Below, one piece after another: positions 6,614 to 12,690 of a stretch of DNA of 24,000 nt (position 1 is the stretch's first letter; every line of letters begins with the position of its first letter). The stretch comes from an uncultured Desulfobacterales bacterium. GTDB taxonomy: Bacteria > Desulfobacterota > Desulfobaccia > Desulfobaccales > 0-14-0-80-60-11. Made by a program: the position numbers and the translations under genes. The notes below the pieces were generated by a model. It saw only the letters and a list, made by a program, of their open reading frames with translations. It made no database searches and was not told the DNA's origin. The DNA lies in the NCBI GenBank assembly GCA_964618815.1, contig CAZUBT010000010.1, forward strand, positions 32,799 through 56,798. The letters run 5' to 3'.

Positions 6614-6970
6614 ATGAACTGCGCCCGTTGTCATAATCCCCTGAATCCGGAGGAGGCCCGGGAACTTACCGGGCAGCGCCTGTGTGAAGACTGTTATCTG
6701 GATGCCGTGAGCACGGTGCGCACCTGCGACCCCTGGGCGGTGCATACGGCCCGGAGCCTCAAGGACCAGGACGGCAAACATTATCTGACCCCGGTGCAAC
6801 AACAGTTTTATGACCTGGTAAAGACCCGGGGGGAAGTGCCGGTTCCCGAAGCCGCCCGGGCCCTGGGACTCACCGAGGAGGAGCTGCGCCGGGAGTTTGC
6901 CCCCCTGCGCCACATGGAGCTCCTGCGGGCCGGCAAAAAGGATCAACTGATTTTTATCACCTTATTTTGA
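6614..6970 (+). CDS. Zinc-ribbon (CxxC...CxxC) plus C-terminal winged-helix-like small protein, translationally coupled to the ECF sigma
   Basis: 118-aa ORF with GGGGAGAG upstream. N-terminus is MNCARCH...CEDC. C-terminus is helix-rich (PEAARALGLTEEELRREFAPLRHMELL). Its TGA stop overlaps the TTG start of the next gene (TTGA, 6967-6970). Confidence 0.55.
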   Translation: MNCARCHNPLNPEEARELTGQRLCEDCYLDAVSTVRTCDPWAVHTARSLKDQDGKHYLTPVQQQFYDLVKTRGEVPVPEAARALGLTEEELRREFAPLRHMELLRAGKKDQLIFITLF

Positions 6971-7521
6971 GCGAAACTCCCACCGATCTGGATTATGCCC
7001 TGCTGCGCCGGGTGGCCCGGGGGGACCAAGAGGCCCTCACGGAACTCATTCGCCGCCATCAGGGGCGCCTCATGCAAATCGCCTACCGTTTGCTGAAAGA
7101 CCCCCTGGAGGCGGAAGACGCCCTCCAGGAGGTCTTTCTCAAGGCTTATGAACACGCCCACCGTTTTGAGCCCAGGTCCTCGGTTTCCGCCTGGCTCAAC
7201 CGCATTACCGCCAACCACTGCCTGAACCTCCTGCGGGCGCGGCATCCCGCCGAGTCCCTGGACGAAGAGGGCGCCTCGCCGGTGGCGGATTCCGGCCCCT
7301 CGCCCCTTGAGGCCCTGGAAGAGCAGGATCTGAGCCGCCGATTGGAGGAACTGCTGGGCGCCTTGCCGGAAAACCAGCGCCGGGCCTTGATCCTGAAGCG
7401 CTTCGGGGGCCTGTCTTATCAGGAAATCGGGGAACAGATGGGCCTCAGCCCCCAGGCAGTGGACGGCCTGCTGAAACGGGCCCGGCAGTTTTTGAAAAAG
7501 GCGTTGGCGGATTATTTATAG
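6967..7521 (+). CDS. ECF-type RNA polymerase sigma factor (sigma-70 family, group 4)
   Basis: 184 aa. Region 2 is EDALQEVFLKAYEHAHRFEPRSSVSAWLNRITANHCLNLLR. Region 4 HTH is LPENQRRALILKRFGGLSYQEIGEQMGLSPQAVDGLLKRARQFL. Confidence 0.9.
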   Translation: MSETPTDLDYALLRRVARGDQEALTELIRRHQGRLMQIAYRLLKDPLEAEDALQEVFLKAYEHAHRFEPRSSVSAWLNRITANHCLNLLRARHPAESLDEEGASPVADSGPSPLEALEEQDLSRRLEELLGALPENQRRALILKRFGGLSYQEIGEQMGLSPQAVDGLLKRARQFLKKALADYL

Positions 7522-7625
7522 AAAGCGCAGAAGCACGCGGATGCACACAGATAGAGATGGAAAAATCCGTGGGGACCTGCGTTCATCTGCGGATCAAATA
7601 TTGAGCCTCTTGCAAAGGTGGTTTC

Positions 7626-7701
7626 GAGGGGAGGGCCGGGGGACATTTTTCGTAAGGGTTCCCCCGCCCTCCCCTCTAACTCCCCTCCCAACCCCCTTTA
7701 A
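7626..7701. repeat. G-run/C-run palindromic repeat plus half-site
   Basis: GAGGGGAGGGCCGGGGGA (7626-7643) pairs with TCCCCCGCCCTCCCCTC (7660-7676). AACTCCCCTCCCAACCCCCTTTAA (7678-7701) matches 11109-11132 at 23 of 24 positions. Confidence 0.6.
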
Positions 7702-7731: not shown

Positions 7732-7789
7732 GTAGGGGCGAACCTAGGGTTCGCCCACCATTCAGGGCGAACCCAAGGTTCGCCCCTAC
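7732..7789. repeat. REP doublet (REPIN-like): two inverted GTAG-headed GC-rich hairpins
   Basis: GTAGGGGCGAACCTAGGGTTCGCCC (7732-7756) and its inverted partner GGGCGAACCCAAGGTTCGCCCCTAC (7765-7789), separated by 8 nt. Confidence 0.7.
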
Positions 7790-7877: not shown

Positions 7878-10800
7878 ATGAAGATTCACGAACTCCTTTC
7901 CCCGGCGAACATCGTCCCCCGGTTTGACCCCGGGCCCGATGACCCTCTGAAGGCCCTCGTTGCCCTGGCCCGCGCCCGGGCGGGGTCGGCGGTGGACGCG
8001 GCGCGCTTTGAGGCGGAGGAGCTTAAACTCATCCACGGCTATCTGGGAGAGGGCCTGGGGATCTTCCATAACCTGACGGACGCGGTGGATGCGCCGCTTC
8101 TGGTCCTGGCCCTGGCCCCGTCCGGAGTGCAGGTAACCGGCCAGAACCTCCGGGCGCTGGCCGCGCTGCTCTCCCCCCTGAAAGACAGCGGCTACCATTT
8201 TCAGATCCTCTCCAAGCTCATCGCGCTGCTTCGCAATCCGCGCTTCCGGGAAGAATTGCTGGCCAAGGAGACCCCCGGCGAGCTCCTGCGGGCCGTGAAG
8301 CTGGAGGAAGAGTCGGGGCGGGAGCGTTATTGGGTATTGTCCCGGGACGAGGTCCTAACGGAGCTGGAGACCACCGCGCGGGGTCTGTCTCCGGAGGAAG
8401 CCGCGGCCCGCCTTAAGGAGATCGGCCCCAACCGCATCGCCCGGGTTCGGCGCCGGCCCCTGATCCTGCGCTTCGGGGCCAATCTGGTCAATCTCTTTGC
8501 CCTCCTGCTCTGGGCCGCGTCCGGGTTTGCCTACCTGGCGGGGATGCCGGAGCTGGCCTATGCCATCCCCTTAGTGATCTTGATTAACGCGGTTTTCAGC
8601 TTTTTTCAGGAGTACCGGGCCGAAAAGGCCGTTGAGGCCCTGGAACGGCTCATTCCCGCCATGACCAGGGTGGTTCGGGATGGTGAAGTGTGGCAGGTGG
8701 AGGCAGCCGGCTTGGCCCCGGGGGATATCATTCTCCTGGAGGCGGGGGATCAGGTTCCCGGGGACGCCCGCCTCATCGAGGCCGAGGATTTCCGGGTGGA
8801 CAACAGCGCCCTCACCGGAGAGTCCCGCCCGGCTTACAAGTTTGCGGAGCCGGTGGAGGACGGCCAGGAATTTCTCTGGATTGAGATGCCCAACTTGGTC
8901 TTTGCCGGCACCGCCGTGGTATCCGGCTCTGCCCGGGGCGTGGTCATGGCCACGGGCATGGACACCCAGCTGGGCAATATCGCGTCCCTGACTCAGGCGG
9001 TGGAGGAGAAACCCAGCCCCCTTCAGCAGGAGATGCGGGTGGTGGGCAAGGTGGTGGCCGGGGTGGCCTGCTCCGTGGGCCTGGTATTTTTCCTGGCGGG
9101 GATCGTCACCGGCAAGCTCACCTTCCTGGCCAGCCTGATCTTCGCCATCGGCATGATCGTGGCTTTCGTGCCCGAGGGCCTCTTGCCCACCCTGAGCCTA
9201 TCTCTGGCCATGGGGGTGCAGCGCATGGCCCGGAAAAACGCCCTGGTGAAAAAGCTGTCCTCCGTGGAAACCCTGGGCGCGGCCACGGTCATCTGCACCG
9301 ACAAGACCGGCACCCTAACCACCAACGAAATCGTGGTGGGGCGCGTCTGGTTGGGAGGGGAGCTCTTGGGGGTGACCGGGTCGGGCTTCCAACCCCAGGG
9401 CCGCCTGGAACTGCACGGAGAACCGTTGTCCCCGAAAAAGCTGGAAAGCCCCCTGATGGAGTTATTTACCCGAGGCGCGATCCTCTGCAATAACGCGTCT
9501 TTAAGCGCTGCCGGCAAGGTAACGGGAGACCCCACCGAGGCTGCGCTTTTAGCGCTGGCCGCCAAAGCCGGGAAAAATTGGCAGGAGGTCCGGGCCGCCG
9601 CGCCCCGGCGCAAGGCCTTTCCCTTTGAGTCGGTGCGCAAACGCATGAGCGTCATTCATACCTCTCCACAGGGCAGGTTGCACTGCTGGGTCAAAGGCGC
9701 GCCGGATACCCTGATCCCCCTGTGCCGCACTGTGACCGAATGGGATGGCCAGGAGCGGCCCCTCACGACCCAGGACCGGGCCGGGTTAATTCAAGTGATG
9801 AATGACCTGGCCCAGAAGGGACTCCGCCTCCTGGCCCTGGCCTGGAAAGAGGCGGACTCCCCGGAGATGAGCCAGGCCCAGGCGGAGAGCGGCCTCAGCT
9901 TCCTGGGGATTGCCGGCATGATGGACCCGCCCCGGCGGGAAGTGCCCGGCGCCATTGAGAAATGCCATAGGGCCGGGATTCGCGTCATCATGATCACCGG
10001 AGATTACGGCGGCACCGCCCGGGCCATCGCCGGGGAGGTCGGCCTGCGCCTTGATGCCCGGACCCCGGTGATGACCGGAGACCAGGTCTCCCGCCTGCCG
10101 GAGGCGCAACTGCGCAAAATCCTCAAGGGCAAGGAGGATCTGGTCTTTGCCCGCACGTCCCCGGAAGATAAGCTGCGCATCGTCATGGCCCTGCGCGACC
10201 TGGGCCAGGTGGTGGCGGTCACCGGCGACGGGGTGAACGACGGCCCGGCCCTCAAAGCCGCGGACATCGGGGTGGCCATGGGGAAACGGGGCGCTGAAGT
10301 GAGCAAAGAGGCTGCGTCCATGGTCCTGGCGGATGACAATTTCGCGTCCATCGTCACCGCCATTGAAGAGGGCCGGGCGGTTTACGCCAATATCAAGAAA
10401 TTCATCACCTATATCTTTGCCTCCAACGTGGCGGAAGCCATTCCCTTTATCCTGTTCGTGTTAATGGGCATCCCCCTGCCCCTGGGGATCATGCAGGTCC
10501 TGGCGGTGGACCTGGGCGCGGACCTGCTCCCGGCCCTGGCCCTGGGTTCCGAGCCGCCGGAGCCGGGGATCATGGACCGGCCGCCCCGCAACCGTAAGGC
10601 CCATCTCATCAATCCGGAGGTGGCCCGGCGTTTCGCGTTCCTGGGCCTCCTCACCGGGGCCGCGGGGATGCTGGCTTATTTCTATGCCTATCTTACCGGG
10701 GGCTGGCGCCCGGGCCTGGAAATGGCCGCGTCCGGGCCGCTTTATGCCCGGGCCACCACCATGTGCTACGGCGGCATCATCATGGCGGCGGCGGGCAACG

Positions 10801-11069
10801 CCCTGGCCCTGCGCACCGACCGGGAATCCATCTTCAGGGTGGGCCTGACCTCAAACCGCCTACTGCTGGCGGGCCTGGTCAGTGTGCCCCTGGTCCTGCT
10901 GGCCCTGAGCCAGGTGCCGGTCCTGCAACGCAGCTTCGGCACCGCGCCTTTGAGGGGGACGGACTGGCTGGTTCTCCTGATTTTCCCCGTGGTGCAGGTT
11001 TTGGCGGACGAGGCCCGCAAGGCCTGGGCGCGCCGGCGGGATCGGGGGGAGGGGAAGCATAAGGCTTGA
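7878..11069 (+). CDS. P-type (E1-E2) cation-transporting ATPase with N-terminal PTS EIIA type-2 (PtsN-like) domain
   Basis: 1063 aa. Motifs: Cation_ATPase_N-like LSPEEAAARLKEIGPNRI, TGES (DNSALTGESRP), PEGLLPT in TM4, phosphorylation site ICTDKTGTLT, and hinge TGDGVNDGPALKAADIGVAMG. The first ~150 aa are collinear with PtsN/EIIA-2 (GLGIFH versus GIAIPH; LLSPLKDSGYHFQILSKLIALL versus LLVPADQTKTHLHTLSLVAKRL). Confidence 0.9.
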   Translation: MKIHELLSPANIVPRFDPGPDDPLKALVALARARAGSAVDAARFEAEELKLIHGYLGEGLGIFHNLTDAVDAPLLVLALAPSGVQVTGQNLRALAALLSPLKDSGYHFQILSKLIALLRNPRFREELLAKETPGELLRAVKLEEESGRERYWVLSRDEVLTELETTARGLSPEEAAARLKEIGPNRIARVRRRPLILRFGANLVNLFALLLWAASGFAYLAGMPELAYAIPLVILINAVFSFFQEYRAEKAVEALERLIPAMTRVVRDGEVWQVEAAGLAPGDIILLEAGDQVPGDARLIEAEDFRVDNSALTGESRPAYKFAEPVEDGQEFLWIEMPNLVFAGTAVVSGSARGVVMATGMDTQLGNIASLTQAVEEKPSPLQQEMRVVGKVVAGVACSVGLVFFLAGIVTGKLTFLASLIFAIGMIVAFVPEGLLPTLSLSLAMGVQRMARKNALVKKLSSVETLGAATVICTDKTGTLTTNEIVVGRVWLGGELLGVTGSGFQPQGRLELHGEPLSPKKLESPLMELFTRGAILCNNASLSAAGKVTGDPTEAALLALAAKAGKNWQEVRAAAPRRKAFPFESVRKRMSVIHTSPQGRLHCWVKGAPDTLIPLCRTVTEWDGQERPLTTQDRAGLIQVMNDLAQKGLRLLALAWKEADSPEMSQAQAESGLSFLGIAGMMDPPRREVPGAIEKCHRAGIRVIMITGDYGGTARAIAGEVGLRLDARTPVMTGDQVSRLPEAQLRKILKGKEDLVFARTSPEDKLRIVMALRDLGQVVAVTGDGVNDGPALKAADIGVAMGKRGAEVSKEAASMVLADDNFASIVTAIEEGRAVYANIKKFITYIFASNVAEAIPFILFVLMGIPLPLGIMQVLAVDLGADLLPALALGSEPPEPGIMDRPPRNRKAHLINPEVARRFAFLGLLTGAAGMLAYFYAYLTGGWRPGLEMAASGPLYARATTMCYGGIIMAAAGNALALRTDRESIFRVGLTSNRLLLAGLVSVPLVLLALSQVPVLQRSFGTAPLRGTDWLVLLIFPVVQVLADEARKAWARRRDRGEGKHKA

Positions 11070-11176: not shown

Positions 11177-11461
11177 TTATTTCCCGGTCAGCTCTTGGAT
11201 TTCTTTCCGGGCGTGTTCCATCTCCTGGACCTGTTCCGGGTCCAGGCGCAGCAGCATGGTTTGGAATTCCCCCACGTGGGTCTTCTCCTCTTTGGCGATG
11301 TCCAGGAAGACCCGGCGGATGTCTTCGTCGTCTGTTAAGGCTGCCAGTTGCTCATAGAGATTGATGGCGTCCAATTCGGCGATGATGCCGATACGGAGAA
11401 GCTCTTGATTAAGCTGGCCTTTCTTGAGTTTGCTGAAATCCACGGGAATTTGCGATAACAT
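11177..11461 (-). CDS. EncFtn-like half-ferritin (ferritin-like domain) protein; no shell gene adjacent
   Basis: 94 aa with GGGAGG 8 nt upstream of the ATG. IAELDAINLYEQ ... AKEEKTHVGEF fits the E...Y / ExxH metal-ligand pattern I recall for encapsulated-ferritin family proteins. Confidence 0.55.
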   Translation of the reverse strand: MLSQIPVDFSKLKKGQLNQELLRIGIIAELDAINLYEQLAALTDDEDIRRVFLDIAKEEKTHVGEFQTMLLRLDPEQVQEMEHARKEIQELTGK

Positions 11462-11641
11462 ATAAAACCTCCCTTTTATTTCAGGTTTGGTTTATGCTCC
11501 TGTCAGGCAAATTAAGCATAAAACGCGGTAGCGTCAAGGAGAGCGGCCCTCCCCGTGAATCCCGTAATGGGTCAGCGCCCGGCCGCGGCAATGAGGGCCG
11601 GCCCTCTTAACATGGTGGACATATCCAAAAACATTTTGCTT

Positions 11642-11665
11642 AACCCGCGCCGAATTTCGGCGTTT
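11642..11665 (+). promoter_or_regulatory. Candidate ECF-type promoter (AAC-N16-CGT) upstream of the anti-sigma gene
   Basis: TTAAC (AAC at 11642-11644), 16 nt, then CGTTT (11661-11665), about 45 nt upstream of the ATG at 11711. The spacer itself is the palindrome CGCCGAA-T-TTCGGCG. Confidence 0.25.
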
Positions 11666-11710
11666 CCGGTGTTTTTTTAATCAGCAGCAATTTTTCCCGG
11701 AGAGGACCCC

Positions 11711-12145
11711 ATGCAGGCCAAGTGCCCAGAAGTGCAGAAAAGGTTGTCCGCCTGGCTGGACGGCGAGTTGGAGGAGACCTGGCTGGCCGCCCTGTCAGCG
11801 CATCTGGAGGGCTGTGCCCCATGCCGCCGGGAGCTGGCCCAGCTCCAGGCCCTGGACGCGGCCCTGGGGGACCTGCCCGCGCCCGCGCCCCTTTACCTGG
11901 CGGACCGGGTCCTGGCCCGCCTAGCCCGGCCACCGCGTCGTTGGTGGCAGTCCCTGGCCCTGGCCGCCACCCTGGTGATGGGCCTGACCCTGGGAGGCGC
12001 CCTGGCCCGCAATTTTTATCCCATGGCCCCGGCCAATGGCGACGGCGCGGAAATGGCGGCCCTGGAAGACTTTCAAGACTTTCCGGCGGGCTCTTTGGGC
12101 GCAGTCCTGGCCTCTTATCATCCTGAAGAAGGTAACGGCCTGTGA
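11711..12145 (+). CDS. Anti-sigma factor, zf-HC2 (ZAS) type, single-pass membrane
   Basis: 144 aa. HLEGCAPC provides the H-x3-C-x2-C motif after an N-terminal helix. One hydrophobic segment is present (WWQSLALAATLVMGLTLGGALA). Confidence 0.8.
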   Translation: MQAKCPEVQKRLSAWLDGELEETWLAALSAHLEGCAPCRRELAQLQALDAALGDLPAPAPLYLADRVLARLARPPRRWWQSLALAATLVMGLTLGGALARNFYPMAPANGDGAEMAALEDFQDFPAGSLGAVLASYHPEEGNGL

Positions 12146-12690
12146 AGCGGAACTGGCTTCTCTATCTGGTGATTTTTTCCCTGGCCCTGAATCTTGGGAC
12201 CATCAGCGCGTTCTTCTATCTGCGCTACCAGGATCAAAAAATGGTCGGTCTGCGGGAGTTCAAGCCCCCCTTGCCCATGAGGGAGTTGTGGCGGGCTTTG
12301 CATCTGGCGGATGAGCAGCGCCGGGCCTTGCGGGACCTGCTCCCGGACCATCGCCGCCGGGTGCTGGGGCTGAGAGAGGATTTGGCCCGGAAGCGCCTGG
12401 AGCTGTTTGAGTTGATCAAAGGTGAGGCCCCGCCCCAAAGTGCGGTTCAGGGAAAAGTGCAGGAGATCAGCAGCCTCCAGGGCGGGCTGGAAGAGGAAAT
12501 GGTGCGCTTTCTGCTGGAGTTCAAGAAGCACCTCCAACCTCAGCAGCAAGCCGCGATGGCGGAGCTGATGCAGCAGCGTTTATGCGGGCCCCCGGACTGC
12601 GGGCCCCGGGGACCGCACCCGCCGGACCGCGGCGGCCGCATGGGCCGGGGGCCTGTGGGACCAAAGGGGCCGCCTCCCGAGGGCCCCTGA
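12142..12690 (+). CDS. Periplasmic heavy-metal sensor / Spy-CpxP-ZraP-like (Metal_resist-type) protein
   Basis: 182 aa. The GTG start overlaps the upstream stop (GTGA). Has an N-terminal signal/anchor and coiled LxxxQ-type repeats (LHLADEQRRAL, HLQPQQQAAMAEL). The C-terminal tail is Gly/Pro-rich and contains CGPPDC. Confidence 0.72.
   Translation: MKRNWLLYLVIFSLALNLGTISAFFYLRYQDQKMVGLREFKPPLPMRELWRALHLADEQRRALRDLLPDHRRRVLGLREDLARKRLELFELIKGEAPPQSAVQGKVQEISSLQGGLEEEMVRFLLEFKKHLQPQQQAAMAELMQQRLCGPPDCGPRGPHPPDRGGRMGRGPVGPKGPPPEGP

Follow-up and report, generated by a model that had tools for sequence, protein, structure and literature searches.

The free phosphotransferase system (PTS) protein PtsN (EIIA-Ntr) regulates the K+ transport proteins TrkA and KdpD. 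Moreover, in Escherichia coli, YcgO, a K+/H+ antiporter of the cation–proton antiporter (CPA) class, is inhibited by the binding of unphosphorylated PtsN (PMC11808508). A transporter can also carry a PTS domain in its own chain, as in LacS, where a fused EIIA-Glc-like domain is phosphorylated on a histidine by HPr and modulates transport; according to a 2023 review, LacS is the sole bacterial transporter regulated by its own phosphorylation (PMC10710835). For P-type ATPases, another review of 2023 discusses terminal regulatory domains for eukaryotic families, makes no mention of the PTS or EIIA, and describes prokaryotic P1B metal-pump sequences as free of terminal regulatory domains (PMC10654040). 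Here, we describe a gene in a stretch of 24,000 nucleotides from an uncultured Desulfobacterales bacterium (contig CAZUBT010000010.1, positions 32,799 to 56,798; hereafter the window) in which an EIIA domain of PtsN type is joined to the N-terminus of a P-type ATPase, and the ion site of this pump resembles that of Na,K-ATPase.

We propose, with a probability of roughly 0.5, that this EIIA domain is a cis-regulatory element gating a monovalent-cation pump, with phosphorylation of its His64 by HPr or NPr as the input. Regulation of transport by PTS EIIA proteins is already known, and it is the arrangement in cis on a P-type ATPase that we read as new. The initial annotation of the window, made from the sequence alone, was aware of no experimental characterization of such a protein, and our full-text literature search, whose coverage leaves out older comparative surveys of P-type ATPases and the PTS, likewise found no paper that describes or tests an EIIA–P-type ATPase fusion. 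Automated annotation already sees both domains, since precomputed Pfam architectures contain them and one JGI protein name lists both functions (P0101).

The EIIA–ATPase fusion

The fusion protein is encoded by a single open reading frame (ORF), and its N-terminal part is divided as follows.

7878–11069, + strand: EIIA–P-type ATPase fusion gene, complete including the stop codon; a single ORF of 1063 residues with a series of Pfam domains along one frame.
7878–8312, + strand: PTS EIIA-2 domain of PtsN type, residues 1–145, identified by Pfam, by a family profile against the Protein Data Bank (PDB), and by AlphaFold2 with Foldseek.
8313–8330, + strand: linker, residues 146–151, leading from the EIIA domain to the N-terminal A-domain segment of the pump; contains conserved residues.
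8331–8525, + strand: Cation_ATPase_N segment (PF00690, E 1.6e-14), residues 152–216, part of the actuator (A) domain.

In the ORF listing of the window, the gene begins at the first possible start codon of its frame, and Met1 is kept in 108 of 115 aligned homologues. Along the full protein, Pfam places PTS_EIIA_2, Cation_ATPase_N (residues 152–216), E1-E2_ATPase (258–453), Cation_ATPase (535–619), Hydrolase, and Cation_ATPase_C (866–1049) in this order. The P-type ATPase thus lies in the same uninterrupted frame, as the initial annotation had stated, with TGES, PEGL, DKTGT, and TGDGVNDGPAL all inside ORF 7878–11069. In the linker region, E144, G147, E149, Y151, and L154 are conserved in the homologue alignments, and the predicted local distance difference test score (pLDDT) of the full-length model drops to 73 at the linker.

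The N-terminal domain had been assigned to the EIIA-2 family along the whole of residues 1 to about 150. The Pfam search suggested for residues 1–160 returned PTS_EIIA_2 (PF00359) at 36.0 bits (E 8.2e-9), above the gathering cut-off of 27 bits, and the full protein scored 31.6 bits; the single-sequence alignment to this model spans residues 52–140 only. In a phmmer search against the PDB, residues 5–144 align to Neisseria meningitidis IIA-Ntr (2a0j) with a single-sequence E-value of 0.013. Furthermore, a family profile built from 29 homologous N-termini and run against the PDB places four PtsN structures at the top (E 1.8e-22 to 5.5e-18, 83–69 bits), with 3oxp at 51 bits and IIA-Mtl after the PtsN structures (E 2.7e-10, 44 bits). 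The AlphaFold2 model of residues 1–150 (pLDDT 89.7; predicted template modelling score, pTM, 0.86) matches 2a0j, 3urr, 4gqx, and 1a6j in Foldseek with TM-scores of 0.73–0.75 and a probability of 1.00, so that the fold prediction, also suggested earlier, agrees with EIIA-Ntr. Collectively, because Pfam, the family profile, and the fold agree, residues 1–145 are a PTS EIIA-2 domain of PtsN (EIIA-Ntr) type, nearer to PtsN than to the sugar EIIAs. The proposed identity therefore stands, whereas the match along the full length does not come from the single sequence and appears only with the family profile and the fold.

Distribution of the fusion

With the whole protein as query, 7952 P-type ATPases were retrieved. 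The best 120 of these are 48–100% identical to the query and 1044–1091 residues long, and about 110 of them carry PF00359 together with the ATPase domains. Homologues with the same architecture and similar length form more than 110 clusters from independent NCBI, JGI, ENA, and Logan assemblies, and the carriers include metagenome-assembled genomes (MAGs) of Nitrospinota and NC10. In addition, the cultured Desulfobacca acetoxidans DSM 11109 carries the fusion (AEB09198.1, WP_013706310.1, UniProt F2NHL1) on a complete chromosome of 3.28 Mb.

One genome per species was also scanned with the motif P[LI]K[ED]SGxH[FL]Q, a pattern that was taken from a 12-sequence alignment, covers only the Glu and His clades described below, and hence undercounts the family. 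The scan gave 29 loci in MAGs of Deltaproteobacteria, Desulfobaccales, Syntrophales, and Thermodesulfobacteriota, three Nitrospinota, and one NC10. At 19 of the 29 loci the gene is complete and runs in frame into DKTGT, TGES, and GDGxND; five loci end at a contig edge after the ATPase motifs start, three end too early to tell, and two look frameshifted. The initial annotation had taken the protein for a genuine fusion and not for two genes joined by a frameshift, and this is borne out by more than 110 independent assemblies and a complete genome; the survey of spread that it called for amounts to about 110 fused proteins among the best 120 homologues and 29 loci in the species-level scan.

At the two loci with interrupted frames (L010, 9899–12457; L021, 1626–2561), the frame ends early, at 853 and 312 codons, respectively, without GDGxND; they could be pseudogenes or sequencing frameshifts. 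Two separate EIIA–pump loci (L015 and L017) occur in one MAG, the groundwater deltaproteobacterium JACRNI01, which suggests paralogues. A candidate close homologue without the EIIA domain, P0050, was rejected as a 5′-truncated gene call that starts inside the last EIIA helix.

Active site of the EIIA domain

Three residues of the phosphoryl pocket are located as follows.

8019–8021, + strand: codon of Glu48, aligned to 2a0j; the equivalent PtsN residue is the active-site Arg (E. coli R57), which precedes the His by 16 residues.
8067–8069, + strand: codon of His64, in the loop GLGIFH, equivalent to the phosphorylatable His73 of E. coli PtsN; alignment to 2a0j, 3urr, and 4gqx.
8196–8198, + strand: codon of His107, in the motif SPLKDSGYHFQ, equivalent to the second active-site His (E. 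coli PtsN H120); alignment to 2a0j.

His64 aligns with the His of GVAIPH in 2a0j, 3urr, and 4gqx and is kept in 113 of 115 full-length homologues, with Asn in the other two; the earlier placement of the GLGIFH histidine at the phosphorylatable position is therefore matched by its conservation throughout the fusion family. His107 aligns to the His of ENATGEHLEVLSKL in 2a0j, is kept in 114 of the 115 homologues and invariant in alignment A1, and forms the lowest-entropy column of the domain. Pro100 and Gln109 are each kept in 114 of 115. Based on these alignments, the columns of lowest entropy in the EIIA domain are H107, P100, Q109, and H64, while the clades share only 20–36% identity over the domain. 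The two loops that bear the histidines are thus the most conserved part of a divergent domain, which argues for a working active site rather than a scaffold.

Position 48 differs between clades. In the clade of the window, 45 of 52 sequences have Glu, with the motif FEAEELxLLHGYLGEGLAILHNL and an additional conserved histidine, His53. Among the distant clades, Arg is found in 31 sequences, with the motif LLDREAxGSTGxGRGVAFPHAR, which is the canonical PtsN signature; His is found in 17, with the motif LKDHESIDGVLAGTGSAIFH, and Lys in 7. The pump of the sister clades with the Arg signature is the same, with an overall identity of about 50%. Most simply, a genuine PtsN would first have become fused to the pump, and the phosphoryl pocket would have diverged afterwards in some of the lineages, that of the window among them. 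Two homologues, P0090 and P0097, read GVAFPNARID, in which Asn replaces the phosphorylatable His, and have Lys where PtsN has the Arg; they are natural non-phosphorylatable variants.

The pump and its ion site

The rest of the protein is a complete type II P-type ATPase. Its motifs and ion-site residues are listed below, with counts from 76 aligned homologues; TM denotes a transmembrane helix.

8814–8825, + strand: TGES dephosphorylation motif of the A domain, residues 313–316, read in the sequence; invariant (76/76).
9171–9182, + strand: PEGL motif of TM4, residues 432–435, read in the sequence; E433 kept in 75/76.
9300–9314, + strand: DKTGT motif with the catalytic Asp475, read in the sequence; invariant (76/76).
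10221–10241, + strand: TGDGVND hinge motif, residues 782–788, read in the sequence; invariant.
10422–10523, + strand: ion-site residues S849, N850, E853, D878, A881, and D882 of TM5–TM6; HMMER alignment to Na,K-ATPase alpha4 (8zyj).
10797–10799, + strand: codon of Asn974 in TM8, at the position of Na,K-ATPase Asp926 (Na+ site III); alignment to 8zyj, Asn in 71/76.

The catalytic motifs, including KGAP, TGES, DKTGT, and TGDGVND, are invariant across the homologues, and the P-type ATPase model TIGR01494 is passed with 297.6 bits against a cut-off of 62.3. The subfamily models score below their cut-offs: the PMR1-type Ca model TIGR01522, which is the top NCBIfam match, gives 618.8 bits (cut-off 798.3), the IIC Na,K/H,K model TIGR01106 gives 601.2 bits (cut-off 946.1), and the SERCA model TIGR01116 gives 557.3 bits (cut-off 703.4). 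Among solved structures, the best sequence matches are the Na,K- and H,K-ATPase alpha subunits (519–496 bits), followed by Listeria LMCA1 (491), SPCA1 (490), and SERCA (436). Similarly, the full-length AlphaFold model (pLDDT 83.3, pTM 0.77) finds its best fold matches in H,K- and Na,K-ATPases in E2-type states, with TM-scores of 0.70–0.77 and 33% identity. We read the pump as a probable bacterial P2 subfamily of its own, outside the named NCBIfam subfamilies.

In the HMMER alignment of the window protein with Na,K-ATPase alpha4, TM5 reads YIFASNVAEAIPF versus YTLTSNIPEITPF (SNVAE versus SNIPE), and TM6 reads VLAVDLGADLLPALALG versus ILCIDLGTDMVPAISLA (VDLGADLLPA versus IDLGTDMVPA). E433, S849, N850, E853, D878, and D882, which correspond to E327, S775, N776, E779, D804, and D808 in pig alpha1 numbering, are each kept in 75–76 of the 76 homologues. 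Position 881 is Thr in 59 and Ala in 17 of them; where Na,K-ATPase has T807 and Q923, the window protein has Ala in both places, while Thr and Gln prevail in the family. In the fusion family, the first TM6 site position is the invariant Asp878, in contrast to the Asn of SERCA-type Ca2+ pumps (SERCA N796). Collectively, these residues give the pump an ion pocket that resembles sites I and II of Na,K-ATPase rather than the sites of Ca2+ pumps, and because of this match the pump most likely moves monovalent cations (K+ and/or Na+, perhaps in exchange for H+). The link to K+ is indirect, as it comes from the Na,K-ATPase-like ion-site residues and from the related fusions of EIIA to Na+/H+ exchangers.

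Related EIIA domains

When 1.84 billion cluster representatives were searched exhaustively with a profile, 17,233 proteins matched at E ≤ 1e-3. The representatives were clustered at 50% identity, and full-length pumps collapse into few clusters; the search therefore shows the nearest non-fused EIIAs, and the size of the fused family is not derivable from it. The best 150 of the 17,233 proteins are mostly standalone PtsN-like proteins of 150–160 residues. The EIIA domain of the Arg clade aligns along its entire length (154 residues, 36% identity, E 1e-34) with a standalone PtsN of 153 residues from a ptsN–hprK–EIIA-Man cluster, and the EIIA domain of the window is 28% identical to the same protein over 96 residues (E 5e-13).

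Ten of the best-scoring longer matches were sampled; seven of them are Na+/H+ exchangers of CPA type (PF00999), six with two EIIA-2 domains and one with a single such domain. PF00999 exchangers of 730–906 residues with one or two C-terminal PtsN-like EIIA-2 domains are represented by P0128, P0133, P0134, P0135, P0145, P0148, and P0248. By analogy, the exchanger–EIIA fusions would be a covalent version of the PtsN–YcgO interaction of E. coli; a literature search found no description of fusions between Na+/H+ exchangers and EIIA-2. PtsN-type domains have thus been fused at least two times to monovalent-cation transporters. The exchanger fusions support a role of the pump's EIIA domain as a transport regulator and fit the monovalent ion suggested by the ion site.

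One partial protein of 655 residues (P0139) has an amino-acid-permease-like membrane domain, followed by an Arg-type EIIA without its first ~14 residues and then by Cation_ATPase_N and E1-E2_ATPase, and thus represents either a fusion of three parts or a chimera produced by assembly. Foldseek matches 23–49 of the EIIA model come from eukaryotic anion exchangers of the SLC4 family (Band 3, AE2, NDCBE, BTR1), in each case from the cytoplasmic domain at the N-terminus, so that SLC4 is a further case of an EIIA-like fold at a transporter N-terminus.

Genomic context

The window lies near dnaN and gyrB, and the gene directly upstream of the pump encodes an extracytoplasmic function (ECF) sigma factor.

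6967–7521, + strand: ECF sigma factor gene directly upstream of the pump, with Sigma70_r2, Sigma70_r4_2, and Sigma70_ECF domains.

The gene order is a CGGC-domain gene, gyrB, two small ORFs, the ECF sigma gene, the pump, an EncFtn-like gene on the minus strand, a zf-HC2 anti-sigma gene, and a Metal_resist gene. A Cys-rich zinc-ribbon ORF of 118 residues precedes and overlaps the ECF sigma gene, the two together spanning 6614–7521. The zf-HC2 anti-sigma and Metal_resist (CpxP/ZraP-like) genes, within 11177–12690, are parted from the sigma gene by the pump and the EncFtn-like gene on the opposite strand. This sigma–pump neighbourhood is syntenic in three related MAGs (L009, L010, and L012), whose GyrB is about 80% identical. 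Outside these close relatives, the sigma–pump order is not kept: in D. acetoxidans and the other clades, the pump is a solitary gene with unrelated neighbours. In the lineage of the window, the pump may belong to an envelope- or metal-stress regulon, as this gene order suggests, and the ECF sigma factor is a possible lineage-specific transcriptional link to it.

The gap between the sigma gene and the pump is 357 nt in the window and 84–109 nt in L012 and L010. It contains two long GC-rich palindromes, at 7614–7699 and 7732–7789 of the window. One has arms of about 29 nt, and the other has 25-nt arms that are 96% complementary, each arm being itself a palindrome, GGGCGAACCnnnGGTTCGCCC. Each palindrome is preceded by TTTTTCGTA(A/G)GGG, a motif found nowhere else in the window. 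Since the gap is only 84–109 nt in L012 and L010, the palindromes look like inserted elements resembling repetitive extragenic palindromes (REP) or miniature inverted-repeat transposable elements (MITE). In the 357-nt upstream region, an Rfam scan for an ion riboswitch gave only sub-threshold hairpin matches to miRNA models, and a promoter and terminator scan of the upstream region gave results no better than shuffles. At one Arg-clade locus (L004, 6665–8513), genes for P-II and glutamine synthetase are found about 1.5 kb upstream of the pump; this nitrogen-related neighbourhood is one case and probably coincidental.

Discussion

Rotation of the A domain drives the E1P–E2P transition and dephosphorylation of P-type ATPases. 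The EIIA domain, tied to the A-domain segment by a six-residue linker, is well placed to restrain or release the A domain. The terminal regulatory (R) domains of eukaryotic P-type pumps act by such restraint (PMC10654040). We propose that the EIIA domain would serve as a built-in R domain, the state of which would alter its packing against a putative docking surface on the A, nucleotide-binding (N), or phosphorylation (P) domain. Altered packing would shift the E1/E2 equilibrium and turn pumping either on or off, with the state of the His64 pocket controlling whether the A domain is restrained or released. As the likeliest input, a carrier of HPr/NPr type from a regulatory PTS would phosphorylate His64; this input would be ancestral and is probably still prevalent, and pump activity would thereby be tied to phosphoenolpyruvate (PEP)/pyruvate and nitrogen status. 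The fused domain would be a cis counterpart of free PtsN, which acts on TrkA, KdpD, and YcgO in trans.

Several observations weigh against this proposal. The NCBIfam PtsN equivalog TIGR01419 scores only 12.5 bits against a cut-off of 138.7, and the pump reaches no NCBIfam subfamily cut-off. The Asp of Na+ site III is replaced by Asn974 (71 of 76 homologues), and for this reason we can only infer which ion is transported. Moreover, in the window protein and its clade, the active-site Arg is replaced by Glu48, and the Ser-Thr and Pro of the GST..IPH loop, which has diverged to GLGIFH, are missing. A negative charge next to the His should disfavour phospho-His, and Glu48 lowers our confidence in His64 phosphorylation for the window protein. 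In addition, no gene for HPr/NPr, enzyme I (EI), or HprK was detected, either in the window or, across 573 kb, at distances of up to 10 kb from 36 related loci. This donor search combined regular expressions for the EI, HPr, and HprK active sites with tblastn queries (HPr, NPr, and PtsN of E. coli; HPr of B. subtilis), and its sole matches over the 573 kb were the fused EIIA domains themselves. Across D. acetoxidans and three other clades, no gene neighbour is conserved, and no beta-subunit-like or PTS gene is found there. According to an older comparative study, regulatory PTS components are present in some delta-proteobacteria (Geobacter) and have been lost in others, such as Desulfotalea and Bdellovibrio (PMC2405797); with this patchy occurrence, a phosphorelay in the host genomes cannot be assumed.

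The altered pocket leads to the alternative that survives best, which we regard as possible but tentative: in the clade of the window, the EIIA domain might be a PTS-independent sensor of a small ligand, a metal ion, or pH, or a structural autoinhibitor, acting through Glu47, Glu48, His53, His64, and His107. The change from Arg to Glu in 45 of 52 sequences of this clade, and to His in a second clade (17 sequences), creates Glu/His-His or His-His-His sets around the old phosphoryl pocket, and His53 is conserved in the window's clade as well. The lack of PTS genes near the loci and, in the window's lineage, the position of the gene between an ECF sigma gene and an anti-sigma/Metal_resist pair point the same way, and some EIIA-like folds take no part in phosphotransfer, such as the cytoplasmic domains of SLC4/Band 3 among the Foldseek matches. 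However, the sister clades, in which the pump and its ion site are the same, still show the PtsN signature in full, and the original function therefore almost certainly depended on phosphorylation. Both histidines are retained even where the Arg is lost, and the sigma/anti-sigma synteny is limited to close relatives with about 80% GyrB identity. A narrower version, in which the phospho-acceptor of the window clade has been converted into a PTS-independent metal-, cation-, or proton-sensing pocket that gates a Na,K-ATPase-like pump, appears unlikely; if true, the domain would be a sensor of a new kind among prokaryotic P-type ATPases.

A signal in the reverse direction is improbable. As a transceptor, the tethered EIIA domain would report the conformational or ion-load state of the pump to a PTS phosphorelay or to other PtsN targets, a role with which the conserved His pocket would be equally consistent. 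Free PtsN acts through protein–protein contacts with several partners, and Q109, invariant in the fusion family but not in the solved PtsN sequences, suggests a family-specific contact. Against this, we found no evidence of any partner and no conserved neighbour gene, and a membrane-tethered domain on a low-copy pump would be a poor source of a global signal.

It is very improbable that the domain is a catalytic phosphoryl donor, either as a sugar-type EIIA or by passing phosphate from His64 to Asp475 so that PEP rather than ATP would drive pumping. Both chemistries do have acid-labile phospho-intermediates, and the EIIA domain is tethered beside the A domain; however, the protein has no EIIB or EIIC domain, the profile favours PtsN (83 bits) over IIA-Mtl (44 bits), and the ATP-binding N domain and the motifs KGAP, DKTGT, and TGDGVND are invariant, which argues that ATP is still used. 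Finally, an artefact, in which a frameshift from sequencing or assembly or a mis-called start joins ptsN to a separate ATPase gene, might be suspected from the interrupted frames at L010 and L021 and from the apparent absence of the EIIA domain in P0050, but the latter is merely a truncated gene call, the linker is conserved, and the recurrence of the same architecture and length in more than 110 clusters of independent assemblies and in the complete D. acetoxidans chromosome excludes it.

Control of a cation pump in cis by a phosphorylatable EIIA domain would matter in several respects. Control of a bacterial transporter by its own phosphorylation is considered almost unknown, and the fusion family would give a second, independent class of PTS-domain-regulated transporter after LacS. 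It would also give a folded, structurally tractable R domain on a bacterial pump with a Na,K-ATPase-like ion site, as well as a cis model for the action of PtsN on a transport machine; the known links between PtsN and K+ are all in trans and mechanistically unclear. The fusion could couple ion pumping directly to metabolic state. Since it is present in the cultured and fully sequenced D. acetoxidans DSM 11109 (AEB09198.1), the hypothesis is directly testable, and three natural active-site variants (Arg, Glu, and His) on one pump scaffold offer a ready-made comparison.

Comparison with described systems

Among pumps, the alpha subunits of Na,K- and H,K-ATPases (P2C) are the best matches of solved structure in both sequence (519 bits) and fold, and their site I and II residues are identical to those of the fusion protein. 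In contrast, the present pump is bacterial, has no nearby beta-subunit gene, has a short L7/8 loop and Asn in place of Asp926, and carries an EIIA domain. The Ca2+ pumps LMCA1, SPCA/PMR1, and SERCA show comparable overall similarity (491, 490, and 436 bits), and the PMR1-type model is the top NCBIfam match. However, they differ at TM6, where their Asn (SERCA N796) stands against the invariant Asp here, and the pump falls below the PMR1 cut-off. The autoinhibitory R domains of eukaryotic P2B and P3A pumps share with the EIIA domain the concept of a terminal regulatory domain on a pump and nothing further (PMC10654040), whereas they are sequence-unrelated or mostly disordered.

Among transporters of other kinds, SLC4/Band 3 also has an EIIA-like fold at its N-terminus; Band 3 lacks the His pocket, and the likeness is one of fold, not of relatedness. 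The CPA Na+/H+ exchangers with tandem EIIA-2 domains (P0128, P0133, P0135, P0145, and P0148) likewise place PtsN-like EIIA on a monovalent-cation transporter, although with two C-terminal copies on a secondary antiporter instead of one N-terminal copy on a P-type ATPase. LacS of Streptococcus and Lactobacillus is similarly a transporter with a fused PTS EIIA-type domain. In LacS, however, the domain belongs to the EIIA-Glc family and stands at the C-terminus of a secondary sugar transporter, while here an EIIA-2/Ntr domain stands at the N-terminus of a primary, ATP-driven cation pump. PtsN (EIIA-Ntr) itself shares with the fused domain its fold (TM-score 0.73–0.75) and both active-site histidines, and the family profile meets PtsN before the sugar EIIAs. 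PtsN is a free protein of 150–160 residues with an active-site Arg and a GxAIPH loop, whereas the domain described here is covalently joined to a pump and, in the clade of the window, has Glu and GLGIFH in their place.

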